From the NCBI GenBank assembly GCA_943787795.1, contig CALSNU010000003.1, positions 416,001 through 480,000 on the forward strand: DNA of 64,000 bases. Direction: 5' to 3'. This DNA comes from an uncultured bacterium. Its GTDB lineage: Bacteria > Planctomycetota > UBA1135 > GCA-002686595. The notes beneath the pieces were generated by a model. That model made no database searches. It was not told the origin of the DNA and saw only the letters and a list, made by a program, of their open reading frames with translations. This document shows positions 38,903 to 47,957 of the stretch, piece after piece (the first letter of the stretch is position 1; every line of letters begins with the position of its first letter). Position numbers and translations under genes: made by a program.

Positions 38903-39451
38903 ATGAGTGGCTTCAAGAAACTGGGCTCGAAGGGCAACGTGGTGCACCGCGTGGTGCTTCCTGGCCCGACGAGAAGAGCAGGCGCCCGAGGTACCGGACG
39001 CAGCGGGGCGAGCCTGCGACGTCCAACCGCGGAATCGGAGGGCCGTTCCCCCTCGCTGCCGGCGGCGTGGGGACGCGGCAGGCCGGCCCCGCCGGTCAAT
39101 ACGCCGGTTGATGCGCCGGCCCCGGCGGCCGACTCGGCCGCCGCCCCGCGCTCGCCCTCTGAAGCTCGCCAAGGGCAGCGGGAAACCGAACTCCTTCAGC
39201 GGCGGATCGACAAGCTCTCGAAGTTGTTGACCGAACAAGAGGAGGAGATCCGGAGTCTCTCAGGTGCCCGTGGCCCCCGGCGGAGTCCCGAGTTCGATGA
39301 AGGGGCGGATGAAGAAGCGACGCCGGTCTACGACCTCGTGAAGCCGGGCGCGCCTGAGAGCCCGCGAGGCGAGAAGCGGCGCGCCTTCATGTCGAAGTTG
39401 TTCCAGGCCAACCTGGATCTTCGAGAAAGCGTCAACAAGTCGAGAGCCTGA
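38903..39451 (+). CDS. Hypothetical protein with coiled coil and C-terminal FQANLDL module, upstream of the actin gene
   Basis: ATG 38903; basic Pro/Ala-rich N-part; C-terminal part homologous to the C-terminus of 46923-47957. Confidence 0.75.
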   Translation: MSGFKKLGSKGNVVHRVVLPGPTRRAGARGTGRSGASLRRPTAESEGRSPSLPAAWGRGRPAPPVNTPVDAPAPAADSAAAPRSPSEARQGQRETELLQRRIDKLSKLLTEQEEEIRSLSGARGPRRSPEFDEGADEEATPVYDLVKPGAPESPRGEKRRAFMSKLFQANLDLRESVNKSRA

Positions 39452-39590
39452 GCCGATCAGGGCTGGGCAGGCGGCCCCCGCCGACGTTCTCGCTGCGGCC
39501 CTTTTCCGCGAGGCCTTCACACGCCATGCTAAGGCATCGCGCAGGCAGGCCGGTTCTTCGCGCGACGGTAGGGGGCACCACCCAAACAAC

Positions 39591-40659
39591 ATGACGAACA
39601 TTCAGACGGACGCTGCGGACGGGCCGGGCCAGGACCAGGGTGTCCTCTACGTGGGCATCGATCTCGGGACATCCCGCACCTCCGTGACCGCGAGCAACGG
39701 GGTGCGCGAGACCATCGAGTCCTTCGTGGGCTACCCCAAGGACCCGGTGGCCATGAAGCTCCTTAAGAAGGACGTCCTCTTCGGCTCGGAGGCGCGGGGA
39801 GAAGCGCCTCTCGCTCAACCTCCATCGCCCGCTCGAGCACGGCGTCCTCAAGTTCAACGCCGACGGCAGCGAGAACCAGGAGTCGCGGCGGGCGGCCATG
39901 GACCTCGTGAAGGAGATCGTGCGCCTCGCCAAGCCCCGGAAGGACGAGCTGGTGTACGCCGTGATCGGCGTGCCCGCGCAGGCGCAGATCAACAACAAGG
40001 ACGCCATCCTCCAGGCGGCGCGGGAGTCCGTTGACTCCGTGATGCTCTGCTCTGAGCCGTTCTCCGTGGCCTATGGCCTGGACATGCTGGAGGACGTCCT
40101 CGTGATCGACATCGGCGCGGGGACCGTGGACCTCTGCCGGATGCACGGCACCATGCCGGAGGAGTCCGACCAGATCACGATGAACACCGCGGGCGACTTT
40201 GTGGACGAGGAGCTAGGTAAGGAGATCGGGGCCGCCTATCCCCAGGCTCAGTTCACGAAGCAGATGGTCAAGGCCATCAAGGAGCGCCACAGCACGGTCG
40301 ACGCCAACACGGAGAAGATCACCACCGAGCTCCCCGTGGAGGGCAAGCCCACCGCGTTCGATATCACAGAGCAGGTCCGCACCGCGTGCCAGCGCATCGT
40401 GCCGCCCATCGTCGAGGGGCTTGGCAAGCTCATCAGCACGTTCGACCCGGAGTTCCAGGAGCGCCTCAAGAAGCGCGTCCTGCTGGCGGGCGGCGGTAGC
40501 CAGATCCGAGGCCTGGATCGCGCGATCACCGAGGAGATGCAGCGCACCCTCGGCGGCGGCAACGTGATTCGGATCGAAGAGCCCATGTACGGCGGCGCCA
40601 ACGGAGCGCTGAAGATCGCGCACGACATGCCCGAGGAGTACTGGGAGCAGCTGAAGTGA
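39591..40659 (+). CDS. mamK: MamK-like bacterial actin (355 aa after correcting a +1 frameshift at about 39796-39799)
   Basis: Phosphate-1 GIDLGTSRT, VGYPKD, HRPLEHGVL, connect-1 SEPFSVAYG, phosphate-2 IDIGAGTVD, adenosine LAGGGSQIRG, C-terminal GALKIAHDMPEEYWEQL. The ORF track splits it into 39591..40034 and 39898..40659. Confidence 0.85.
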
Positions 40660-41864
40660 GCGACCCCGGAACCCGGGAGCAGCAGGCGGCCGGCGACCCT
40701 CCCGAGGGGCGCCGGCCGTCGCTTCTTCCTCGGTCCATCGCCTCTTGGCTCGTGGCGCTGACGCCTTGGTCCGCGACACTCCTGCTGACGGCCGTCGCGC
40801 GCTCGGCTCCCGAGACCGTCGAGAGCCTCTATTCCCGCGGCCTCTATCCCGGCGTCGCGCAGGCCGTGGCGCAGGCTGCGCACGGCTGGGCAGCGCTCAC
40901 GGGGTCGGAGCTGAGGGGCGGCCCGTTCCTGTCCCTGTCCGAGGCCGGGCTGCTCGCCATGGCCGTGGTCGGGTGCTGGGCCCTGCGGCGTGGGTGGCGC
41001 CAGGGGGGCGCCGGCGCGGTGGCCCGACAGGTGCTCGCGGCGAGCGGCGGCGGCGCCCTTGTGTTCCTGTTGCTGTGGGGACTCAACTACTCGCGCCTCC
41101 CCCTCGCGGTGTCGCTCGAGCTCGAGGCCTCGGGGGTCACGGCCGCGGAGCTGGATCGGGTCGCTGCGGATCTTGAGGCGCAGCTCGCGGTGGACCTTGA
41201 GGGCCTCGACCGCGTCGAGCGCGCGACCGAACCCGCGGCGGCCCTGCGCGCGGCGCGTGACGCGTGGCGCCAGGCCAGCGAGCGGGAGCCATCCCTCGGC
41301 GTCGGCACCGGCGTCCTCGCCGGCGTACTCGCCGGCGTGCTCGTACGGCCCGCGCTGTCAGGCGCCATCGTGAGCGGCGGCATCAGCGGGATCTTCAGTC
41401 CATTCACCCAGGAGGCGCATGTGGCCGGGCATCTCCCAGAGCCTGACTTGCTCTTCACGGCGTGCCACGAGCTTGCCCACGCCCAAGGATGGGCGCGGGA
41501 GGATGAGGCCAACTACCTCGCCTGGCGGGTCGGCAGCCGCGCGGCGGATCACAGCTTGCGGGCGGCGGCGCGGCTGCTGGCGCTGGCGCATGTGCTGGGC
41601 GCCCTGGGGCGCGCGGACCGGGCCGTGCTGGTGGACCGCCTCGAGGGGCTCGACCCGAGGATCCAGGAGGCCCTGGAGGAGCGTGCGCGATTCTGGGACC
41701 GGGAGCGCTCGCCCGCGGCGAGCCGGGCGGCGTCGGCGGTCAACGATGCCTACCTGCGCAGCCAGGGCCAGGACGGCGTGGCGTCCTACGGGCGAATGGT
41801 GGACCTGCTGGTGGCAGAGTGGCGCGCGGCGGGTGGGACGCTTCCTGTGGGAGATCCGCGCTGA
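40656..41864 (+). CDS. DUF3810-like zincin membrane protein
   Basis: VESLYSRGLYP, WGLNYSR, GIFSPFTQEA, HELAH (HExxH), EDEANY, SYGRMVDLL. GTGA overlap with the actin stop. Confidence 0.85.
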   Translation: MSDPGTREQQAAGDPPEGRRPSLLPRSIASWLVALTPWSATLLLTAVARSAPETVESLYSRGLYPGVAQAVAQAAHGWAALTGSELRGGPFLSLSEAGLLAMAVVGCWALRRGWRQGGAGAVARQVLAASGGGALVFLLLWGLNYSRLPLAVSLELEASGVTAAELDRVAADLEAQLAVDLEGLDRVERATEPAAALRAARDAWRQASEREPSLGVGTGVLAGVLAGVLVRPALSGAIVSGGISGIFSPFTQEAHVAGHLPEPDLLFTACHELAHAQGWAREDEANYLAWRVGSRAADHSLRAAARLLALAHVLGALGRADRAVLVDRLEGLDPRIQEALEERARFWDRERSPAASRAASAVNDAYLRSQGQDGVASYGRMVDLLVAEWRAAGGTLPVGDPR

Positions 41865-41894
41865 GGTCGCGGTTGGAGCGTATATCCTGGCTCC

Positions 41895-44800
41895 ATGCCG
41901 AGCCCTCTCCTCGCCGTCCTTCTTGCCGCGTCCGCCACGGCCGCTCCCGCGCTCTCCAAGCCGACCGCCTGCGCTCCGAATCAGGAGGTTTCCGACGAGG
42001 CGCGCCAGGTCCTGTCGCGCATGCAGATCCCCGAGGGGTTCCGGGTCGAGATCTTCGCCAGCGAGCCGATGCTCGCCAATCCGGTGGCGTTCTGCTTCGA
42101 CGTCTTCGGTCGCGTCTACGTGGCGGAGACCTTTCGTCACCACAAGGGCGTCACGGACATTCGGAGCCACATGGGCTGGCTCGAGGACGACCTCGCCATC
42201 AAGACGGTGGAGGACCGGGTCGCGATGTTTCGCAAGCACGAGGGGGAGGACGGGCTGCGGGATGGGTACTCGGTGGAGACCGAGCGGATCACCCGGCTGG
42301 TGGACACGGATGGAGATGGGGTGGCCGACGAGGCCACGGCCTTCGCCGCGGACTTTGCAGACCCTGCCGCAGGGATTGGAGCGGGGCTCCTCGCGCGGCG
42401 GCGGCTGGACGGTGGGACGGAGCTCTGGTTCACCTGCATCCCTGATCTCTGGCGCCTGTTCGACGAGGACGGCGACGGCGTCGCCGAGCGCATGGACCAG
42501 CACAGCACGGGGTACGGCTTGCGTGTCGCGCTCCTCGGCCATGACCTGCACGGACTGGTGATCGGCCCGGACGGCCGGCTGTACTTTTCCATCGGAGACC
42601 GCGGGTTCAATGTGACGACGGACGAGGGCGAGCGGCTCGTCAGGTTCGGGACCGGCGCGGTCTTCCGCTGCGAGCTGGATGGCTCCGGGCTGGAGCTCTT
42701 CTGTGACGGGCTACGGAACCCCCAGGAGCTGGTCTTCGACACGAGCGGGAATCTCTTCACCCTCGACAACAACTCGGACGGCGGCGACAAGGCGCGCTGG
42801 ACCTACCTGCTCAGGGACAGCGACACCGGCTGGCGCCAGGCCTACCAATGGGTGCAGCGGCCGACCGCGCGGGGCCCCTGGAACCAGGAGCGCCTCTGGT
42901 ATCCCTACTTCGAGGGGCAGGCGCTCTACATCCTCCCGCCCATCGCGAACTTCACCAGCGGCCCGTCGGGCATCACGACGTACCCCGGAACCGGCTGGGG
43001 GGAACCGTTGGCACGACACGTTCTTTGTGTGCGACTTCCGCGGGAACCCGGGCTACAGCGGTATCTACTCGTTCCGAAATGCCGCCGAGGGCGCGGGTTT
43101 CCAGTCCGAGGAGGTGGAGAAGTTTGTCTGGGACGTGCTCCCGACCGATGTGGACTTCGGCGTCGACGGCAACCTGTACTTCTCCGACTGGGTGAGCGGC
43201 TGGAACCAGACGGGCAAGGGCCGCATGTTCCGGGTCGTCCCCGAGGTCCGCGACGAGGCCGAGTCCGGCCTCGTCTCGGAGGTCGCCGCCCTCCTGCAAG
43301 GCGGGCTCGATGGGCTCGACGACGCCGCGCTCCTCGCGCTGTTCGAACACCGGGATCGGCGAGTCCGCCAGGAGGCGCAGCTCTTGATGGCGAGCCGCAT
43401 CCTCTCCGCGGGTGACGACGCCGTGGCCGAGGGCAGCCTCACCCGCCTCCTCGAGGTGGTGACAGACCAGGAGGCCCAGGCCCTTCAGCGGGTCCATGCC
43501 CTCTGGTGTGCGGGGCACGTCGGCCGGCTCATGGGGGCGGGCAGCGTCTCAGCCATGCTGCGCTCCGCGTCGCTGGACCAGGCGCTGCTCGCAGCCCTGG
43601 GCGACCCTGACGCCGAGGTGGTGGCGCAGGCCCTGCGCGTGGCCGCAGAGCGCGAAGCGGTGGACTTCCCCAGGGAGGCCCTGGAGCTGTTGAGGGGCCA
43701 CCCTGAGCCCCGGGTCCGGCTGCTGGCCGCCGAGGCCCTGGGGCGGCCGGGGCTGCCCGAGGACCTGGAGGCTGCCGCCTTCGACGAGCTGGTGGACCTC
43801 CTGGAGTCCGAGGGGCCGGGCGACCCCTGGCTACGCACGGCAGCCATCTGTGCCCTGGATCGCATGGGGCCCTCGGCGCCGGTGTCGGCGCTCGCCGATC
43901 ACCCCGCCGACTTCGTCCGTCAGTGCGCCGTCGTGGTGCTCCGGCGGCGCGGCGATCGTCGGATCGCCAGGTTCCTCGCCGATCCCGCGCCCGCCGTACG
44001 GGCGGAGGCCGCCCGTGGAATCCACGACGCGCGGGTGTCGGCGGCCATGGGGGCGTTGTCCGCTGCGCTCCCCAGCCTCGCGGAAGGTGGCGATACCACC
44101 ACGATCCGGCGTTCTCTCCATGCGTGCCGTGAGGTGGCGACCTACGCCAGCGCCTCGCGCCTGCTCGAGTTCGCTTTGGATGAGCGCGCCGATCGGACCC
44201 TTCGGGCCGAGGCTCTCCGGGTGCTGGCGTCGTGGACCCGTCCGCTCACGCGTGACGGGGTGGTCATGGACCACCGCCCGATCCCCGCAGCCGCGGTGGG
44301 CGACCTCCGCCTGGCGGCGACGGACGTGGACGGCGGCGAGGCGCTGGGCAAGCTGACCCGCAGCCCCTCGCTGGCGGACGCCGCGGTGGGGACGGCCCTG
44401 CTCGAGTTGATCGAGAGCCTGGACGACCCAGCGCTCGACGCTGCGGTCCACCTGGCGGCCGTGGCCGGCCAGGCCGACGCGAATGCTGAGGTCCGCCGAC
44501 GTGCGTACCGGATGCTCTTGCGTCGGGCCCCGGAGGCCTCGGTCACTGCGGACCTCACGGCCCGTTCGGCGGTGCAGGCGGGTAGCCCACTCCGCGCGGC
44601 GGCGCTGCTCGAGGTGCACGGCGCCGCCGCGATCTCGATCGTGGCCGAGGAGGCGCGTGACGGGACCGCCGAGCGCAGGGCAGATGCCCTCCGGGTCCTC
44701 GCGGGCTTCCGGGACGACGCCGCCAGCGCGGCGTTCCTCGATGAGGGCGCGCGGCTCAAGGGCGATGACAGCACGCTGCTCGTGGAGTGGTTGCGGTACG

Positions 44801-45333
44801 CCGGTGGAGCCGAGGACGACGCCGTCAAGAGCGCGGCGGCGGCGATGGAGGCGGAGTGGGAGGCGTCCGAGGACCCCCTCGCCCGCTGGCGCATGTGCCT
44901 GGAGGGCGGTGACGCCGAGCGAGGCCGGCGGATCTTCTCGTCCAAGGCCGAGACGAGCTGCATGAAGTGCCATGTGGTGGGCGACGAGGGGGGCTCCGAG
45001 GCCGGTCCGGCCATGGACGACGTGGGCAAGCGGCTCAGCGCCGAGCAGCTCCTCCGTTCGATCGTCGAGCCCAACGCCGAGATCGCTGCGGGCTATGAGA
45101 GCTGGCTGATCATGACCGACGACGGTGAGACGTTCTCCGGGAGGATCCTCGAGGAGGACGCCGAGGTCCTGCTCCTCGAGACGGCCCAGAAGGAGCAGCT
45201 GGAGTTCGAGATCGTCGAGATCAAGGCTCGCCGCCGGGATGTGTCAGCCATGCCCTCGAACGTGGCCTCTCACCTCTCAAGGTCCGAGATGCGCGACCTG
45301 ATCGCGTTCCTCTCCTCTCTCCGCGGCCAGTGA
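41895..45333 (+). CDS. PVC-type haem-binding CxxCH protein: beta-propeller, HEAT-like repeats and cytochrome c (+1 frameshift at about 42997-43008)
   Basis: PEGFRVEIFASEPMLANPV, DTDGDGVAD, GPDGRLYFSIGD, GLRNPQEL, HEAT-like repeats, GDAERGRRIF...CMKCH...GPAM, SAMP. Split as 41895..43415 and 42679..45333 in the ORF track. Confidence 0.88.
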
Positions 45334-45396
45334 GCCCACTGCGCCCCGCCGCGGCGGCGGGCGCGGGCCCGCAGGCTCACCACTCAGTCGAAAGCG

Positions 45397-46455
45397 ATGG
45401 ACACCATCATCATCCGGGCAGACGCGAGCACCGCCCAGGGCACGGGCCACGTCATGCGTTGCCTGGCTCTCACGCTCGCCCTCGAGGAGCACGGTGTGGC
45501 GGTCATCTTGGCGGTCGCAGAGTGCCCCGAGGCCCTAGTGAAGAGGGTTGAGGCGAGCGGCGCCCAGGTGGAGCGCCTCGCGGTCGAGGTGGGGTCCCGC
45601 GAGGACGCGGCGGCCACGCAGGCCCTCGCCCGCCAGTCGGGTGCGGGATGGGTGGTGCTCGACGGCTACAGGTTCGACCTCGCGTTCCAGCGGGCGCTGC
45701 ACGGCGGCGGCTTCAAGCTCGGGTTGGTGGACGACTTCGCCCACCTTGAGGGGTACGAGGTCGACCTGGTCCTCAATCAGAACAGCCACGCGCGAGCGGA
45801 GGACTACCCTGGGGTTCCGGCGCTCCTCCTGGGCCCGAGCCACGCGCTGCTGCGCGCTGAGTTTGTTCAGGCTCTTCACGCTCTTCATGGGCGCGCGGCC
45901 AGATCCCATGAAGGGCCCGTCCAGAGGCTGCTCGTGACCATGGGGGGCTCCGATCCTGGGAACGCGACCACGTGTATTCTGGAGGCGCTGGGAGCCCTTG
46001 GGGACGGGCAGCTTGAGACTCAGGTCCTCGTCGGCGCGGCGAACCCCCATCGAGCTGCCGTGGACGCGATGGCCTCGGGGATCCCGGGGTGCCGAGTGCT
46101 CGATCCGGTGAAGGACATGGTGCCCCTGCTGGAGTGGGCGGATCTCGCGGTTTGTGCAGGGGGCAGTACCCTGTGGGAGATGGCGGCCTTCGGCGTGCCC
46201 GTCGCCTGTGTCATCCTCGCCGAGAACCAGCAGCCGATCGTCGCCGATCTCGAGCAGCGAGGGGTGGTTGTCGACCTCGGCTGGGACCGGGAGCTGGACG
46301 CCGAGCGCTGCGCGAAAGAGCTGGGGTCCCTGCTGGCGGACGGCGCACGCCGGCAGCGAATGAGCGAGCTCGGGCGCAGGCTGGTGGACGGCGCGGGGGC
46401 AGCGCGGGTCGTGGCGGCCCTCGTGGAGGTCACCGGTCAACCTGCCCGGCGCTGA
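45397..46455 (+). CDS. pseG: PseG/SpsG-family UDP-sugar hydrolase/glycosyltransferase
   Basis: IRADAS..GTGHVMRCLAL, VVLDGY, LVDD, LLVTMGGSDP, AGGSTLWE, AENQ, VDGAGAARV. Confidence 0.85.
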   Translation: MDTIIIRADASTAQGTGHVMRCLALTLALEEHGVAVILAVAECPEALVKRVEASGAQVERLAVEVGSREDAAATQALARQSGAGWVVLDGYRFDLAFQRALHGGGFKLGLVDDFAHLEGYEVDLVLNQNSHARAEDYPGVPALLLGPSHALLRAEFVQALHALHGRAARSHEGPVQRLLVTMGGSDPGNATTCILEALGALGDGQLETQVLVGAANPHRAAVDAMASGIPGCRVLDPVKDMVPLLEWADLAVCAGGSTLWEMAAFGVPVACVILAENQQPIVADLEQRGVVVDLGWDRELDAERCAKELGSLLADGARRQRMSELGRRLVDGAGAARVVAALVEVTGQPARR

Positions 46456-46576
46456 CGCTGTACTGCGGCTCGTCCTCTGTTCTACCGCACCGTGGGCGAC
46501 CTCTGAGCGCCCCTTCCGCGAGAGTGGATCCCTGACGTGCGCCCTTCAGCGGCGGGAGCGTGTCGTGCCCTGGGGG

Positions 46577-46672
46577 CTGGGTGCCTGGGGCCTCGGGGGC
46601 CTGGGGGCCCGGGTGCCTGGGGGACTGGGTGCCTGGGGGACTGGGTGCCTGACGGACTGGGTTGCTGGGCCC
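46577..46672 (+). repeat. G-rich degenerate 16-bp tandem repeat (core CTGGGTGCCTGGGGGA), about 6 copies
   Basis: 16-nt period starting at 46577, 46593, 46609, 46625, 46641 and 46657. Confidence 0.75.
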
Positions 46673-46922
46673 CCAGGAGACCGGGCTTGCTGGGCCCGCG
46701 GAAGACGGGGAGACGGGGCTTGGGGGCTGCGGTGAGGCGTGCCGGTGGGCTGAGGGGCTCGGAGGTCGTCTTGCGGGGCGCCAGGCGCCGTTCGGGGTAG
46801 AGCGATGTTGCCCGGGTCTCTCGCTTGGGGACTGGGCCGAGGAGGGATCCAAGGGGTGCTCAAGGGCTCGTGGCGGTGCGGTCGACGTTTCCCTTGTCGC
46901 CCTACGCGGGCGCACTATCCCC

Positions 46923-47957
46923 ATGGCCAACCCCGGAACGCTGAGCTTCAATCCGAGCGGCACGCCGCTGTTCACGGACGACGAGGTTCGTTCGCTGATG
47001 CAGATCGAATTTGATCGAGCGCAGCGCTATCGCTATCCGGTGGCCTGCCTGCTGATCGAGATCGACCGGCTCCGGGATATCCAGACCATGCACGGCTTCG
47101 ATGCGCGGCTGACGATCCTCCAGGCGCTGGTCGAGCTGCTGCAGGGCGAGACCCGAGCGGGGGACCTGCTGGGCACCGTGGTCGATGATCGCCTGATGGT
47201 GCTCATCCCGCACACCATGCCCGCCGCCGCACGAGCGATCAGTGAGCGGGTGCTGAGCGGCGCGCGCCAGATGGAGTTCGTCATCGGCGGCAAGTCGATC
47301 CGCGTGACCGCGTCCATTGGCGTAGCGCACAACCAGGACGATGCGGCGAACTCGGTCGCCACCCTGGAGCGCGTGGCCGAGGAGGGCCTCGCCGTCGCCG
47401 TCGGGAATGGCGGGGGTCAGGTCGCCCAGACCGAGCTCTACGAGCTGTACGAGAAGGAGCCGGCGCCAGAGGCCCCCGCCGTAGGTGACGTGGAGGAGCT
47501 GCTCGCCAGGGCCGAGAGCATGGGGTACCGGCAGCGCCTTGAAGGGCTCGTGGCCGGCGGTGCCCCGCTGGAGTCGGCGGCCCAGGAGGTCGCCAACGAG
47601 GTCGTCCAGCGCGCTGTTCAGCAGGAGCGCGAGCGCTGGAGCCGGGATCTCGAGATGGCGAATGCGCGGATCGAGGCCATGTCGACGACGCTCAAGCAGG
47701 GGGGCGATCGTGCAGGTGTGGACCGGGACCTCCAGCAGCTCAATCGGCGCATCGAGAAGCTCACGCGCTCCCTCGAGACCACCGAGGCCGAGATCGCGCG
47801 ACTGCGCGCGGCGGGCTCCACGGACGAGGGGGTGGCCTCGGTCTATCGCGAGGTCCAGGGGCTCGACAGCGACGAGAACCGCGCGGACCTCAAGCGCGAC
47901 CTGATGGGTGCGATCTTCCAGGCCAACCTGGACCTGCAGTCGCGTCGCAGCGCCTGA
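46923..47957 (+). CDS. Degenerate GGDEF-domain protein (RxxD I-site retained) with C-terminal coiled coil and FQANLDL module
   Basis: EFDRAQRYRYPVACLLIEIDRL, HGF, RAGDLLGTVVDDRLMVLIPHT (GGDEF replaced by VDDRL), VTASIGVA. Confidence 0.85.
   Translation: MANPGTLSFNPSGTPLFTDDEVRSLMQIEFDRAQRYRYPVACLLIEIDRLRDIQTMHGFDARLTILQALVELLQGETRAGDLLGTVVDDRLMVLIPHTMPAAARAISERVLSGARQMEFVIGGKSIRVTASIGVAHNQDDAANSVATLERVAEEGLAVAVGNGGGQVAQTELYELYEKEPAPEAPAVGDVEELLARAESMGYRQRLEGLVAGGAPLESAAQEVANEVVQRAVQQERERWSRDLEMANARIEAMSTTLKQGGDRAGVDRDLQQLNRRIEKLTRSLETTEAEIARLRAAGSTDEGVASVYREVQGLDSDENRADLKRDLMGAIFQANLDLQSRRSA

Follow-up and report, generated by a model that had tools for sequence, protein, structure and literature searches.

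A C-terminal module co-inherited with the planctomycete actin saltatorellin, and a candidate route for cyclic di-GMP input to the filament

Prokaryotic actins with dedicated partner proteins are the closest described counterparts of the locus reported here, six genes that lie on the + strand between positions 38903 and 47957 of a 64,000-nucleotide stretch of DNA (the window) from an uncultured planctomycete. Gene 1 (38903-39451) adjoins the gene of a MamK-like actin on its upstream side, and its product ends in the same C-terminal module as that of the last gene, which encodes a GGDEF-type protein. The actin has a described relative in the saltatorellin of Poly30 (Saltatorellus ferox; bioRxiv 10.1101/817700), likewise a MamK-like actin that a planctomycete has in addition to MreB, and one whose filaments have been obtained in E. 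coli and M. gryphiswaldense. Saltatorellin has been proposed to drive shape-shifting in planctomycetes that lack FtsZ, and no regulator of it was found in the literature searched. That search covered saltatorellin, MamK-like planctomycete actins, and cyclic di-GMP (c-di-GMP) together with bacterial actin, most subscription papers lying outside it, and it returned no description of a partner. The main text of the saltatorellin preprint, supplements apart, contains none of the words operon, upstream, GGDEF, c-di-GMP, coiled or adaptor (bioRxiv 10.1101/817700); the part seen of PMC11032199 merely names saltatorellin, and that of PMC11929497 describes BeeR and no partner.

Partners are better described for other filaments of this fold. 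Arcadin-2, the product of a gene in the crenactin cluster, docks a conserved C-terminal helix, set off by a variable linker, in a hydrophobic groove of crenactin and depolymerises its filaments (PMC5173319), and ParR, the adaptor encoded next to type II ParM, places a C-terminal peptide at the polymerisation interface and hence holds one filament end only (PMC9178275). MamK-family actins work with dedicated non-enzymatic adaptors both in the MamK-MamJ pair (PMC10653835) and in the Mad coiled-coil network of deep-branching magnetotactic bacteria (PMC12748827), and c-di-GMP receptors of the PelD type, which bind their ligand at the I-site, combine a dead GGDEF active site with an R/RxxD/R I-site (PMC7288161). 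The locus described here shares with ParR and arcadin-2 a conserved C-terminal helix that follows a variable linker and is encoded beside the actin, and with PelD a degenerate GGDEF domain.

The module and its association with saltatorellin

The original prediction described two otherwise unrelated proteins that end in homologous modules. Both modules are present on the + strand and form the C-terminal ends of their open reading frames (ORFs), and 29 of 82 positions are identical between them (blastp, E 4e-9). Copy 1 (39182-39427) consists of a helix, a diverged linker with an insertion and a terminal helix at 39374-39421; copy 2 (47718-47945) ends in a helix at 47892-47936, the predicted actin-binding element. 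The carriers themselves turn out not to be unrelated, as they are paralogues of one partner family. In the genome-wide count that had been proposed, made with a profile built from both modules, exactly three of 74,168 frames are significant, the third being C1:810155-811687 (E 5e-15) and the next-best frame reaching only E 0.13; the three carriers of this genome are of a short-linker, a dead-GGDEF and an ancestral type. In a tree of 47 module rows, open at depth, three ancestral-type copies form one branch (97/90) and the short type groups together, along with one long-branched GGDEF row.

The module profile matches at least 916 clusters at 50% identity, and the module is, as first supposed, not a named domain: no Pfam family reaches its cut-off on 24 modules, and the best match among PDB sequences (E 0.019) covers the coiled-coil part only. 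Candidate names sought in Pfam, in NCBIfam (six carrier proteins) and among PDB sequences were rejected, generic coiled-coil matches being all that was returned. The predicted fold is a helix, a loose linker and a second helix, and in some partners the linker decays while the last helix persists. Fold searches give no evidence of a new fold for the module or for the ancestral partner; their best Z values, 7.0 for the whole ancestral protein (on its long helices) and 4.2 for the module, are uninformative, and the best ESM Atlas match to the module (0.85, 132 of 256 shared features) is a lead only. In two proteins (P0120 and P0168) the module stands C-terminal to a partial beta-propeller match and a weak SLOG match respectively, possibly as further fusions or as chimeric fragments.

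The module occurs with the actin throughout the genomes sampled. Among 401 Planctomycetota genomes, in which kin are not independent, the module is found in 94 and the actin (E<=1e-25) in 148; 94 genomes hold both, none the module only, 54 the actin only and 253 neither, so that the co-occurrence proposed at the outset holds for 94 of 94 module genomes. Copy numbers of the module are lower bounds because only 14 candidates per genome were scored. Among the matches listed, at least 85 of the 119 hits of the module are followed immediately by a listed actin, and these fall in 76 of 86 genomes that have the module and a listed place for the actin (50 actin matches are unlisted, and 8 module genomes have no listed actin place). 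Closer to the window, 38 of 41 near genomes hold the module and 36 the actin, and the three without the module also lack the actin. In other families of the order the module occurs in 13 of 16 genomes, with one copy each, and in each of the 13 loci fetched the actin comes straight after it; among GTDB loci found with an ancestral-type alignment the actin is the next gene in 79 of 80, and the 80th ends with its contig. Duplicated actins each have a module gene of their own. The taxon names that the sources give are all Planctomycetes, the genome-by-genome survey having been made within Planctomycetota. The module is a C-terminal element that is co-inherited with the actin and is normally encoded directly before it.

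Twenty actin loci without a module hit were also fetched and the refined profile applied upstream of the actin. A module-like stretch is present in eight of them (two weak, E 0.005 and 0.24), in seven more, inspection by eye shows a similar helix at the partner's end, in two copies at two of these loci, and one locus is truncated; the remaining four are taken up below. The terminal helix motif appears twice, as judged by eye, in the tails of the distant partners L123:4769-5464 and L125:3584-4492, a doubling that we would liken to tandem WH2 repeats. At L118:5081-7439 two module-bearing partner genes stand in tandem directly upstream of one actin.

By the sequence criteria available the window's actin (39591-40659; Pfam MreB_Mbl) is saltatorellin, an already named member of the MamK family. 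An intact orthologue from the same genus (88% identical) scores 419 bits against the NCBIfam MamK model (NF040964, cut-off 400) and 198 bits against BeeR, whose cut-off of 530 it does not pass, and an orthologue 97% identical to the window's actin over 253 amino acids matches solved MamK chains at E 2e-80. Read by hand, the window's actin begins MTNIQTD and ends YWEQLK-stop, where the saltatorellin cloning primers read MTDITTD and YWEQLK-stop (bioRxiv 10.1101/817700); it is a MamK-like second actin of a Saltatorellus/OM190-type planctomycete with termini that agree with the primers. Saltatorellin is single in this genome, a weaker MreB-like match lies elsewhere, and the records of relatives mostly carry the name Planctomycetota. 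In this genome, which is 85% complete and in which the search controls were silent, the magnetosome markers MamI and MCR were not found and the best match to MamB reaches 100 bits against a cut-off of 350. That the actin is a pseudogene, as an extra base at 39796 would imply, was considered and is ruled out, the base being absent from 4 of 4 sequencing runs from three studies.

The complex model paired module copy 2 with the intact actin of a relative (97% identical over 253 amino acids), each as a 105-row alignment. It scores 0.73, 0.72 and 0.73 in three runs, while the best of three controls scores 0.00; the score mark is reached by 116 of 157 solved complexes and by 2 of 215 mismatched pairs, a calibration that is rough here, where our own alignments were used. 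The runs share at least 88% of their contacts, the partner has a predicted local distance difference test (pLDDT) value of at least 62, and the last helix is placed on the actin with low expected error. In the 81-residue piece the predicted contact residues of this amphipathic helix are K61, M65, I68, F69 and N72, and it is predicted to lie on actin residues 134-136, 144 and 325-338; the most certain contacts are those of module residues 61-75 with 134-136, 144 and 325-337 of the actin. The tightest contacts fall on the best-conserved positions of the module (K61 94%, N72 98%, F69 83% and I68 81% of 105 rows). In the alignment with MamK the contacted residues of the actin border the catalytic glutamate motif and make up the C-terminal helices, and they correspond, in conventional actin numbering, to what we take to be the hydrophobic groove between subdomains IA and IIA. 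The predicted docking site is thus, on that alignment and numbering, probably the groove used by ParR and arcadin-2.

Strict co-occurrence, adjacency and a complex model that passes its controls together argue well for the docking of the module on the actin that was originally proposed, and the module probably binds it. The adaptor role likened to that of MamJ fits less well: an adaptor is a reasonable analogy, but ParR and arcadin-2 are the better one.

Several observations count against this conclusion. The actin modelled was that of the relative and not the window's own. Helix-in-groove complexes of actin-fold proteins have already been solved (ParM-ParR and crenactin-arcadin-2), and the model's pass may therefore partly reflect likeness to them. 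Conservation of the interface does not discriminate, because actins without an adjacent partner keep its core positions about as well (7-8 of 11) as distant partner-linked actins (5-9 of 11). Four of the 20 actin loci, all of one family (L128, L129, L131 and L138), lack a recognisable upstream partner, and an adjacent one is thus not obligatory for the actin; two near genomes (81-82% complete, in 310-670 contigs) have modules and no actin match, and two of the three carriers of this genome are not adjacent to the actin.

Exchange of partner front ends and the degenerate GGDEF domain

What precedes the module differs between lineages, the front ends being the ancestral domain, a dead GGDEF domain, a degenerate PilZ barrel or a short linker. 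In the ancestral partner a small domain at the N-terminus is followed by a long coiled coil and then by the module; the C1 copy of this genome (810155-811687) is of this type and is unlinked to the actin. Partners from different parts of the phylum share a helix-strand-helix motif at the N-terminus, many of the matches being weak. A gene for a BY-kinase/MinD-like ATPase precedes the partner in most loci of the order (12 of 13) and of the GTDB set (79 of 80), and in none from the window's family (0 of 29) or from elsewhere in the phylum (0 of 39); the closest match in this genome, C4:209596-208772 (L164:5770-6507), is unlinked to actin and partner.

To judge from sequence, the window's family has exchanged the front end of the partner. 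A GGDEF+module gene lies directly upstream of the actin at 12 loci in eight sister genomes, and three of those genomes and a fourth (G044, G391, G291, G024) have two such pairs. In the window's genus and some of its neighbours the GGDEF+module gene stands 5-8 kb downstream instead, and a short linker-plus-module gene precedes the actin. Because the GGDEF carrier adjoins the actin upstream in sister genera, the link between GGDEF protein and actin that was read from the window is better supported than the window alone would allow. GGDEF occurs in 30 of the 113 proteins scanned among the best 150 library matches, and no GGDEF+module fusion was seen in the fetched loci from outside the window's family. 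Some genomes of the genus have a fourth type of carrier (L016:10046-11257), with a very degenerate GGDEF-like domain and a diverged module, unlinked to the actin.

The likely donor of the fused domain is a stand-alone dead-GGDEF paralogue without the module (C3:196426-197037, about 190 amino acids, with RxxD). Matches to it away from the module gene are found in 13 of 16 genomes of other families (E<=2.4e-20), one of them without the actin. This paralogue lies directly upstream of an ORF for an NtrC-type response regulator, and similar proteins occur across the order; it is a candidate for a conserved c-di-GMP receptor in its own right.

The partners of another family open with a PilZ-like barrel; Pfam PilZ matches 10 of 61 scanned proteins at E<=0.01, two of them encoded directly upstream of an actin. 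The proteins concerned (L134:3623-5749, L137:3564-5636 and P0263-P0321) have a degenerate barrel, a repeated TRRVxxP and an acidic tail with a repeated NPDDxPWE.

The short partner of the window (38903-39451, 182 amino acids, most likely starting at ATG 38903) has a conserved N-terminal NxVHRx motif, a Pro/Ala/Arg-rich linker and the module. Its orthologues stand upstream of the actin in eight fetched loci of close relatives; the conserved motif, NxVHRxxL at 38933-38962, is followed by basic residues.

The GGDEF-type partner (46923-47957, most likely starting at ATG 46923, 344 amino acids) consists of the GGDEF domain, a helical linker and the module. Its domain is degenerate, as had been proposed: the signature reads VDDRL (47181-47195), and the equivalents of D327, N335 and D344 are E, Q and L. 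None of 69 fused domains keeps GG(D/E)EF, and the metal- and guanine-binding positions are lost, so that the carrier is, by its sequence, catalytically dead. The alignment to PleD nonetheless places all four I-site residues, R32 (47016-47018), R78xxD81 (47154-47165) and R109 (47247-47249), opposite R313, R359/D362 and R390, the I-site residues named for PleD (PMC7288161). With six partial rows dropped, 63 of the 69 fused domains cover these positions; the primary site (R, D and the R390 equivalent) is kept in 45 of 63 and the R313 equivalent in 59 of 63, and the primary site is complete in 9 of 9 downstream-type loci and in 7 of 12 actin-adjacent ones. Three of the six GGDEF domains of this genome have an intact motif, and c-di-GMP can therefore probably be made.

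A complete I-site beside a dead active site makes c-di-GMP input through the GGDEF carrier plausible. It is fairly probable that the carrier binds c-di-GMP; that binding alters filament dynamics is a more tentative proposition, and one that falls somewhat short of probable. The main alternative accepts the actin binding as real and holds c-di-GMP to be irrelevant, the dead GGDEF domain serving as a scaffold for dimerisation or localisation (anchoring to a pole or the membrane, for example) and its I-site being inherited baggage. The I-site is indeed incomplete in 18 of 63 fused domains, 5 of the 12 actin-adjacent carriers among them; the stand-alone paralogue has the same RxxD and the R390 equivalent, so the site may simply be inherited; and the PilZ-like fusions are degenerate too, with [DN]xSxxG in 0 of 27 and RxxxR in 1 of 27, there in a probable upstream extension. 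These points weigh against a c-di-GMP input. Yet the protein of the window keeps all four I-site residues, against free variation at the catalytic and guanine-binding positions, the primary site is intact in each of the 9 downstream-type orthologues examined, and folds of c-di-GMP signalling have been recruited by two lineages. We regard the scaffold explanation as rather unlikely.

Neighbouring genes and gene layout

Gene 1 is immediately upstream of the actin and all genes from there to the second carrier are co-oriented, in agreement with the original prediction. Between the carriers, besides the actin, lie genes for a DUF3810 protein (40656-41864, its longest ORF running over the actin stop codon), which has no evident cytoskeletal role, for a DUF7133, HEAT and cytochrome c protein (41895-45333), probably a bystander, and for a GT28-type glycosyltransferase (45397-46455), found at the same place in 2 of 9 relatives' loci that share the layout. 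These intervening genes look unrelated to the cytoskeleton, which makes shared orientation weak evidence of one system. A single operon across the 9-kb stretch was considered and is not supported, with 0 promoter-like sites (0.2 in shuffles), a gap of 467 bases before the GGDEF gene and intervening genes that look unrelated. In one metatranscriptome gene 1 and the genes of the actin and the GGDEF protein are partly covered by contigs, and the bystanders are covered as well, in material from which DNA is not excluded.

The actin and the heme/HEAT gene each contain one extra base, at 39796 and 42997, that is absent from 4 of 4 runs from three studies; these bases are assembly errors, and both genes are intact in the population. 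With two spurious bases in this assembly its other frameshifts deserve doubt. Between the GT28 and GGDEF genes (46560-46700) there are short imperfect G-rich repeats, and 16 bases at 46594 are absent in one run.

A possible mechanism and its relation to known systems

We think it reasonably likely that saltatorellin has a dedicated family of partners, that the module is their conserved end for binding the actin, and that their front ends couple the filament to different inputs. The helix before the last would extend the coiled coil, through which carriers may dimerise, and the dimer would present two groove-binding helices and so could cap saltatorellin filaments, track their ends or sequester the actin. 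Since the groove overlaps the lengthwise polymer contact, a carrier is expected to bind filament ends or monomers, as do ParR and arcadin-2. The N-terminal front end would set what the filament couples to, where and when, and in the window's family a conserved stand-alone dead-GGDEF gene would have been duplicated and then fused to the module. The weakest step is the switch itself, in which c-di-GMP at intact I-sites would cross-link or re-orient the dimer and change how its tails engage the actin; cross-linking of two I-sites would be the simplest such switch for the GGDEF carrier. The three carriers of this genome would compete for, or share, one site on a single saltatorellin. In its fullest form, a swappable docking module wires inputs onto one cytomotive actin, with a c-di-GMP receptor acting directly on saltatorellin polymerisation while two paralogues compete for the groove; this we consider possible if doubtful.

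The module could instead be mainly a self-assembly element, forming homo- or hetero-oligomeric coiled-coil filaments or a scaffold like the Mad network and touching the actin only indirectly. Long helices make up nearly the whole model of the ancestral protein, the module's first half has generic coiled-coil matches only, and the Mad coiled-coil proteins interact with themselves, with each other and with MamK/Mad28 (PMC12748827); but in the complex model the last helix sits on the actin at a low expected error, and linker-rich tails keep this helix, by itself or in duplicate, which leaves self-assembly very unlikely as the main function. Most improbable of all is a segregation machine of the ParMR kind, in which the ancestral N-terminal domain would bind DNA or an organelle and the tail would hold filament ends and push the cargo, for although the two-gene layout of actin plus adaptor, the interface-binding C-terminal peptide of ParR (PMC9178275) and the recurrent, often weakly matched helix-strand-helix motif would suit it, scans of the partner family matched no DNA-binding family (no search for centromere repeats was made) and the ancestral N-terminal domain is absent from both window carriers.

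Returning to the partner family as an actin-docking one, the GGDEF carrier is a candidate, open to test, for a protein through which a signal controls a bacterial cytoskeleton, and the locus yields material for the purpose: a peptide of about 20 residues for purified filaments, residues on both sides of the predicted interface and a specific ligand, with cultured strains and a heterologous filament assay already in existence. If c-di-GMP does act through this carrier, a lifestyle signal would directly control a bacterial actin, a case of direct second-messenger control and a candidate for what switches the shape changes and the amoeba-like motion of Saltatorellus-type cells, and one actin would have several groove-binding modulators, as in eukaryotes.

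The gene for ParR follows that for ParM, whereas the partner gene here precedes the actin, no DNA-binding domain was found in its product and the front end is swapped between lineages. Searches among PDB sequences and folds returned no match to indicate homology of the partner to ParR or arcadin-2, the module's best Z being 4.2. Crenactin-arcadin-2 differs in being archaeal, in showing no sequence match and in that the portion of its account seen describes no sensory-domain fusions or paralogue set (PMC5173319). Of the magnetosome systems, no genes are present in the 9-kb stretch and none was found in the genome (85% complete, search controls silent), and NCBIfam gives no Mam or Mad family match for the partners among six carrier proteins. 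Compared with receptors of the PelD type, the output is a predicted actin-binding helix and not a polysaccharide synthase or a protease adaptor. The actin is already known and named, and the three carriers, which share a tail predicted to dock on it, are undescribed.

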